Assembly (NCBI RefSeq): GCF_022846255.1
Contig: NZ_AP025682.1
Length of the DNA: 64,000 bases
Reading direction: 5' to 3' (one strand)
Origin: Escherichia coli
Lineage (GTDB): Bacteria > Pseudomonadota > Gammaproteobacteria > Enterobacterales > Enterobacteriaceae
Shown piece after piece: positions 7,269 through 7,627 of this stretch. The position numbers and the translations under genes were made by a program. The notes beneath the pieces were generated by a model. That model saw nothing but the letters and a program-made list of their open reading frames with translations. It was not told the DNA's origin and did no database searches. The stretch's first letter is position 1, and the number at the start of each line of letters is the position of its first letter.

Positions 7269-7627
7269 AAATCATACTGCCTGTGGATGTGGTGTTGTAA
7301 CGTTAAATTTTTGTGCCAATCCCTGGGGATGATACAGCGGTATATTTAAACAATTTTAGCGGGAAATACTCCCAACCAGGCGCGGCGAAGAATAGTTTTT
7401 CGATTTACCGCGTAAATGCAGTCAGTATGACAGCACCTGAAGCGCAATTTAAACGCTTATAACGTTTTAAAGCAAGAAGGGATCTAAAAACCAGAGGTAT
7501 ATAGCGATAAGAAATCACCAACCAGTATAAAACACTATTTCAATGAAAAAGACATGGCTAATCATGCGAACAAAAAATCACCAACCATTGTAAAATCTAA
7601 CGCCCGTATTTCGACTGCAAAGAAAAT

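Follow-up and report, generated by a model that had tools for sequence, protein, structure and literature searches.

The window, i.e., the whole 64-kb stretch of E. coli DNA that was analysed, carries proY, brnQ, phoR, and phoB in this order on its minus strand, an orientation opposite to the K-12 convention. Window coordinates are converted to those of K-12 (NC_000913.3) by subtracting them from 426859. brnQ encodes the low-affinity LIV-II carrier of branched-chain amino acids. It is separated from phoR by an intergenic region (Table 1) that is found in 5424 of the 5426 complete E. coli genomes, at one place per genome, and that is 100% identical to the corresponding region of E. coli strain SK1144. 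No feature is annotated in this region in K-12 RefSeq or among the matches listed. The phoR/brnQ context and the hairpin of the phoR terminator are as the first-pass annotation of this DNA had described them. An Rfam scan of positions 6900-8000 returned nothing real, only a chance-level fragment of tmRNA (E = 0.51). In E. coli GDSC2BY4G (NZ_CP136025.1), a copy of IS1A is inserted at the phoR terminator, near window position ~7625, and separates phoR from the brnQ upstream region.

Table 1. Features in and around the phoR-brnQ intergenic region (window coordinates).
Feature	Position	Strand	Remarks
proY	4500-5876	minus	
brnQ	5949-7268	minus	
phoR	7675-8970	minus	
phoB	9028-9717	minus	
phoR-brnQ intergenic region	7269-7674		406 bp
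phoR intrinsic terminator	7620-7649	minus	10-bp stem 7626-7649, then T-rich tail
brnQ P2 start	7345	minus	= U00096.2 418738; -10 TAAAAT 7358-7353
brnQ P1 core promoter	7438-7475	minus	-35 TTGCTT 7475-7470, -10 TAAATT 7451-7446
Direct repeat copy 2 (brnQ-proximal)	7509-7532		first-pass 21-mer = 7512-7532
Direct repeat copy 1 (phoR-proximal)	7572-7595		first-pass 21-mer = 7575-7595
Conserved block A	7545-7583	minus	TG.T..TTTTTTGTTCGCATGATTAGCCAT...TTTTTC; between the repeats, holds Lrp-like site S2
63-bp segment absent in strain A39	7524-7586		ends ambiguous within 12-nt core
Lrp-like site S4	7492-7506		10/15, centred -61; species mean 12.1, at least 11 in 90% of species
Lrp-like site S3	7523-7537		13/15, centred -92, overlaps AT-rich end of repeat 2; at least 11 in 79% of species
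Lrp-like site S2	7555-7569		11/15, centred -124, inside block A; at least 11 in 61% of species
Lrp-like site S1	7588-7602		11/15, centred -157; weakly conserved, at least 11 in 33% of species
36-codon ORF of the first-pass annotation	7554-7664	plus	judged not a gene
brnQ-sense 16-codon ORF (MISHVFFIEIVFYTGW)	7515-7565	minus	ATG 7565; judged not coding

Two direct repeats lie in this intergenic region, copy 1 on the phoR side and copy 2 on the brnQ side. They had been described in the first-pass annotation as a pair of 21-mers with 18 of 21 positions in common. Both 21-mers were located where they had been reported, and the start-to-start spacing of 63 bp, equal to 6.0 turns at 10.5 bp, is confirmed; the identity figure is wrong, as the 21-mers agree at 19/21 positions. 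The similarity extends to 24 nt, of which 21 are identical. An exact core of 12 nt, GGTTGGTGATTT on the brnQ-sense strand (7512-7523 in copy 2), is common to both repeats and present at just these two places in the 64-kb window. The repeat pair is real and statistically unusual. When the 406-bp intergenic region was shuffled 1000 times with its dinucleotides preserved, the best 24-nt direct repeat never reached 21/24; scores of at least 17 occurred in ~22% of the shuffles, and the maximum was 19, seen 6 times. In the whole window, direct repeats of at least 20/24 within 400 bp are found at only 6 loci, and two of these resemble REP elements. The other direct repeats at this level are a T-rich tandem motif, TTTCGCAATTTTTT, near 1444-1520, a 20/24 pair 132 bp apart at 23181 (23181-23340), and REP-like copies (GCCTGATAAGACGCG...) that lie ~100 bp apart near 42.9 kb (42943-43100).

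Transcription start sites of brnQ were taken from a Cappable-seq table for MG1655 in M9 glucose at mid-log phase (PMC4782308). The entries examined are those of the plus strand, which cover the brnQ-sense starts. Such starts are listed at U00096.2 418645 (plus, RRS 15.3) and 418738 (RRS 12.3), and no sense start is listed between 416464, within phoB, and 418645 (PMC4782308). In the window they correspond to P1 and P2, respectively. The offset of +776 from U00096.2 to NC_000913.3 is one that we take from an older brnQ coordinate. It is corroborated by promoter hexamers that had been predicted from the sequence beforehand and that agree with the mapped start within 2 nt. P1 starts at an A at 7438 and has a spacer of 18 nt, and P2 has no obvious -35 hexamer. 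As the P1 start is at 7438, both repeats are upstream of this promoter, at -71 to -94 (copy 2) and at -134 to -157 (copy 1). A sigma-70 promoter within repeat 1 was considered and rejected: its sole consensus match is TCGAAA-16-TACAAT, no start maps there, and TACAAT is changed to TACAAC in K-12 and most other strains. The sense-strand RNA of 7260-7600 gives a fold z-score of 0.37, with no sign of structure.

Several other elements are found near these promoters. Conserved block D (~7370-7420) lies just upstream of P2 and includes an Lrp-like 11/15 match at 7388-7402. Another element, TGGCAC-N5-TTTAA (7303-7318, minus strand), resembles the -24/-12 element of sigma-54 promoters and lies ~40 nt upstream of the brnQ ATG; no M9-glucose Cappable-seq start corresponds to it. 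It is reported that RpoN holoenzyme gives a gSELEX peak in the phoR>brnQ spacer at 418,832 (PMC8743547). At +5 to +22 of P1, the sequence CTGTCATACTGACTGCAT (7416-7433, minus strand) has as its first 8 nt the Pho-box half-site CTGTCATA. Its second half is imperfect, it is moderately conserved, and it was missed by a strict 18-nt PhoB scan; the locus is directly downstream of phoBR. Just upstream of the brnQ start codon there is an invariant C/A-rich stretch, CAACACCACATCCACAGGC (7279-7297, minus strand), which fits the GcvB R1-dependent control reported for brnQ (PMC9299463).

For the study of conservation, brnQ upstream regions from 80 Enterobacteriaceae species were aligned. The DNA between the two repeats includes a block of ~39 bp (block A), which is near-invariant in most of the 80 loci and can be made out in the majority of genera, from Escherichia to Klebsiella, Enterobacter, and Kluyvera. 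Block A occupies -107 to -145 relative to P1. Its distance to the P1 -35 hexamer TTGCTT is exactly 90 nt in 70 of the 70 species having both blocks, and the sequence in between varies although this distance is fixed. A second block of ~55 nt (7440-7493) is almost invariant. Conservation along the alignment has no significant helical periodicity of ~10 bp. The spacer that separates the two hexamers of P1 is spanned by a near-invariant AT-rich palindrome of 24 bp, TTTAAAACGTTATAAGCGTTTAAA (7448-7471). This palindrome does not vary from Escherichia to Citrobacter and varies little in the other genera, and it looks like a candidate operator for a dimeric regulator.

The conserved signal is found beside the repeats, not in them. 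Copy-to-copy identity is 21/24 in this window, 20/24 in three other E. coli strains (O157, WP9-S17, and EC6), 19/24 in K-12, 17/24 in four further species of Escherichia, and at most 14/24 in every other genus. Copy 1 has the allele TACAATGG here, TACAACGG in O157, WP9-S17, and EC6, and TACAACGA in K-12. When six E. coli strains were aligned over 260 nt, 4 of the 12 polymorphic sites fell in the 48 nt of repeat, a higher density than in the flanks. The exact haplotype of this window is shared by 1045 of 5424 E. coli genomes, and it is carried by accessions from O25b:H4, ED1a, and 83972, which we take to be phylogroup B2 strains. In the 80-species alignment, the column entropy of the region peaks at the repeat cores (AAATCACCAACC), and copy 2 lies within the most variable segment. 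Since the similarity is confined to Escherichia and strongest in E. coli, the repeats themselves are not conserved in related species, an outcome that the first-pass annotation had named as counting against its idea of paired regulator sites. They are young and polymorphic, and they sit in unconstrained spacer DNA inside a conserved upstream region of brnQ P1. The pair is probably non-functional, and because a 21/24 repeat is rare it may still have a lineage-specific function in E. coli.

Other origins of the pair were also considered. An old tandem duplication of 63 bp was rejected, as block A and the -35 hexamer are equally far apart in every species; the similarity also ends within 24 to 31 nt of repeat. 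A mobile element with a target-site duplication was rejected as well, since different genera have block A conserved at the same place. The repeats show no membership in a dispersed repeat family (REP or BIME) or an sRNA, and there is no dispersed 12-mer in the window.

One natural deletion allele was found. Strain A39 (NZ_CP028737.1), which comes from a wild rodent, is the only genome of 5424 that fails 80% coverage of window positions 7500-7610. It has a deletion of exactly 63 bp, which removes block A and one repeat and joins TTTTACAAC to GGTTGGTGATTTCTTATC inside the shared core. No allele with a 63-bp duplication was found among the 5424 genomes. To serve as a deletion substrate is the only demonstrated effect of the repeat pair. 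A39 offers a ready-made natural test allele, without block A and one repeat.

Lrp is established as a regulator that controls the class of branched-chain amino-acid carriers, and the first-pass annotation had suggested, as a speculation, that the two repeats could be tandem binding sites for a regulator such as Lrp. The region was scored with the Lrp SELEX consensus YAGHAWATTWTDCTR, reportedly that of Cui et al. 1995, which is degenerate and AT-rich. Four Lrp-like sites are found upstream of P1, with spacings of 31, 32, and 33 bp from S4 to S1. The 13/15 match of S3 is the best single match of the region, a level that ~10% of shuffles also contain. The best phased triple (7523, 7555, and 7588; 32 + 33 bp) scores 35, which is reached in none of 300 block shuffles. 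The same score of 35 is obtained for the phoR-brnQ region of K-12, and the K-12 upstream regions of three control Lrp targets score 33 (ilvIH), 35 (livK), and 32 (livJ). The 64-kb window has two loci with a triple of 35 and five loci with at least 33. A phased Lrp-like triple of 35 is also seen in the coding sequence of mhpC (~48122-48200) and was taken as a false positive of the scoring; as it is equally high, false positives occur roughly once per 64 kb.

Across 70 species, the mean Lrp scores are highest at S4, S3, and S2, and weaker at S1 and at 7458-7472. The best triple is at the same aligned positions, with offsets of (-4, 28, 59), in 39 of the 80 species, and a triple score of at least 33 is found in 67 of them. 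A motif-free analysis of self-similarity in the species profile has no peak at a lag of ~32. A search of the literature found no usable Lrp ChIP, SELEX, or footprint data for brnQ; Lrp ChIP-chip reportedly lists brnQ among the targets.

The repeat cores (AAATCACCAACC) occupy alternate linkers between the Lrp-like sites. Only the AT-rich ends of the repeats reach into sites, namely S1 and S3, and the register of this overlap is shifted by 2 nt from one copy to the other. The repeat spacing of 63 bp is close to two periods of the array. What stands of the Lrp proposal is the position upstream of P1 and the kind of regulator, given a conserved phased array that scores like ilvIH, livK, and livJ; what is not supported is the identification of the repeats as the sites, since the repeat cores are the least conserved part and lie in the linkers. 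The cores stay below the thresholds used for the consensus patterns of CRP, IHF, PhoB, TyrR, FNR, Fis, NtrC, Nac, and GcvA. Scans with the sigma-54 and ArgR consensus gave no convincing match in the repeats. A weak palindrome at 7565-7582, ArgR-like (12/16) or CRP-like (N8 spacing), partly overlaps repeat 1, and its left half is not conserved.

The reading that we favour, with a probability of roughly 55%, is that 7490-7605 is the upstream regulatory region of brnQ P1 with a likely Lrp-type phased array, and that the repeats are neutral and do not form a two-site operator. Selection would preserve block A between the repeats together with AT-rich patches 31-33 bp apart, at -61, -92, -124, and, more weakly, -157. 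A multimer of Lrp, or of a comparable regulator that wraps DNA, would bind this phased array cooperatively and thereby modulate P1. Judging from the sequence, the binding protein is most plausibly Lrp itself, which would then act on P1. Each 24-nt repeat would combine a non-conserved linker with part of the neighbouring AT-rich site. The similarity between the copies would have arisen in the Escherichia or E. coli lineage by few substitutions in freely drifting DNA, and the repeats would serve the slipped-strand or short-homology deletion of exactly one 63-bp unit.

It is possible, at rather low odds, that one or more regulators other than Lrp bind the conserved blocks. The Lrp-like scores would then be a by-product of AT-rich conserved DNA, and the repeats would again be neutral. 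Block A exceeds a typical Lrp site in size and in invariance, so another factor may bind it, and both this block and the 24-bp palindrome in the P1 spacer vary far less than the degenerate sites typical of Lrp. The motif-free lag analysis, without self-similarity at 32 bp, and the false-positive triple inside mhpC are consistent with such a reading. It has to contend, however, with a phased triple that equals or exceeds those of three bona fide Lrp targets, with a triple register that is kept in most species, and with a carrier that belongs to the very class controlled by Lrp.

We consider it unlikely that the repeats are a newly evolved pair of binding sites in E. coli for one regulator, be it Lrp or another dimeric or tetrameric protein. 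With six helical turns between them, such sites would face the same side of the DNA and bracket block A, and a protein bound to both may loop or stiffen the DNA upstream of P1. The similarity of the copies far above chance, the exact 12-mer confined to these two places, and the integral number of turns, about two periods of the Lrp array, would be expected of such a pair, as would a location between -71 and -157 of P1, which is typical of upstream regulators, and AT-rich ends that overlap Lrp-like sites. The cores, however, are not conserved beyond E. coli and only partly within Escherichia. Polymorphism is denser in the repeats than in the flanks among the six strains, copy 1 is not the same in K-12 as in this window, and the cores match none of the consensus patterns tried, ArgR included. 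The natural strain A39 also lacks one copy together with block A.

Two small ORFs overlap the interval. The 36-codon plus-strand ORF exists as described in the first-pass annotation: it spans repeat 1 and the phoR terminator hairpin and has no Shine-Dalgarno sequence. On the brnQ-sense strand, a frame opens at ATG 7565. Its TGA stop in this window sits inside repeat 2, and the frame stops at codon 16 or 17 in all Escherichia; where it is open for 32 codons it ends in WF.DP.LL. That the interval encodes a small protein is very improbable, whether the protein is the 36-aa plus-strand product or a hydrophobic sense peptide, a leader or micro-protein made by read-through from phoBR (16 aa in E. 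coli; 32 or 38 aa in Citrobacter, Enterobacter, Kluyvera, and Raoultella). In its favour, 37 of 70 species keep the sense frame open over 32 codons, whereas each of the other five frames is open that far in just 1 to 20 of the 70. Over 90 nt the 70 species show no indels, and Ile at codon 2 of the sense frame is encoded by ATT, ATC, or ATA. Some automatic annotations name the 38-aa form "putative membrane protein", and some name the plus-strand ORF "hypothetical protein". These points are outweighed by the lack of coding character. The entropies of the three codon positions in the sense ORF (0.79, 0.86, and 0.81) and a period-3 spectral power of 0.12 indicate no periodicity, and nucleotide invariance does not end with the stop codon but runs on for ~30 nt. 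The ATG is missing from 15 of 70 species and is not preceded by a conserved Shine-Dalgarno sequence, and about half of the species, all Escherichia included, have a frame that breaks off after 7 to 18 codons. This ORF also lies upstream of every mapped brnQ-sense start. The plus-strand ORF varies in length from 8 to 49 aa across species, and several genera have CCG, CTG, or ACG, and a few GTG, in place of its ATG. Pfam and NCBIfam gave no match to either peptide, and a literature search on a named small protein or sRNA in this interval, on the peptide sequence, and on the coordinates found nothing usable. Both small ORFs are treated as by-products of T-rich conserved DNA. It is also very improbable that the conserved, indel-free 32-codon sense frame, MISH.FF...I(I/L)(F/I)WF.DP.LL, is a hydrophobic micro-protein or leader translated only when, under phosphate starvation, phoBR transcription reads through the phoR terminator. 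The uptake of branched-chain amino acids would in that case be coupled to phosphate stress, and, as the frame is truncated in Escherichia by the TGA inside repeat 2, the repeats would be a mark of gene decay.

Several known systems are useful for comparison. Like the ilvL, ivbL, and leuL leaders, brnQ is preceded by a short sense frame rich in Ile, Leu, Val, and Phe codons. Unlike them, the frame lies upstream of the mapped starts, no terminator or antiterminator is apparent in the RNA fold, codon periodicity is absent, and neither the start nor the stop codon is constant. The pair also resembles iteron-like or tandem operator repeats, in that two units of more than 20 bp, nearly identical, lie upstream of a promoter with a whole number of helical turns between them. 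Functional operator repeats are normally the conserved part of their region, whereas the repeats here are not conserved in orthologous regions and are polymorphic within the species. It is a caution that a statistically striking repeat can be young and neutral and lie in the spacers of a conserved regulatory array.

Another likeness is to the repeats that undergo RecA-independent (slipped-strand) deletion. The copies here share a 12-nt exact core 63 bp apart, and A39 carries an exact deletion of one unit with its junction in that core. In contrast to slippage-prone repeats, the allele is rare (1 of 5424 genomes), it has no duplication counterpart, and nothing points to switching or to phase variation.

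The closest comparison for the favoured reading, that of a P1 upstream region with an Lrp-type array, is with the Lrp operators of ilvIH, livK, and livJ. As the similarity of the repeats is peculiar to E. coli and the conserved part consists of phased Lrp-like sites around them, the finding is largely ordinary, at most one more upstream region of Lrp type, here for a transporter of branched-chain amino acids. The individual brnQ matches are modest (10 to 13 of 15), S2 is embedded in an unusually invariant block, and the array is a predicted one; in these respects brnQ differs from the three operators. As in those operators, degenerate AT-rich consensus matches recur 31-33 bp apart, with a triple score in the same range (35, compared with 33, 35, and 32), in an array upstream of, and reaching into, the sigma-70 promoter of a branched-chain amino-acid gene; if the array is indeed one of Lrp, it would provide the base-level architecture of brnQ control.
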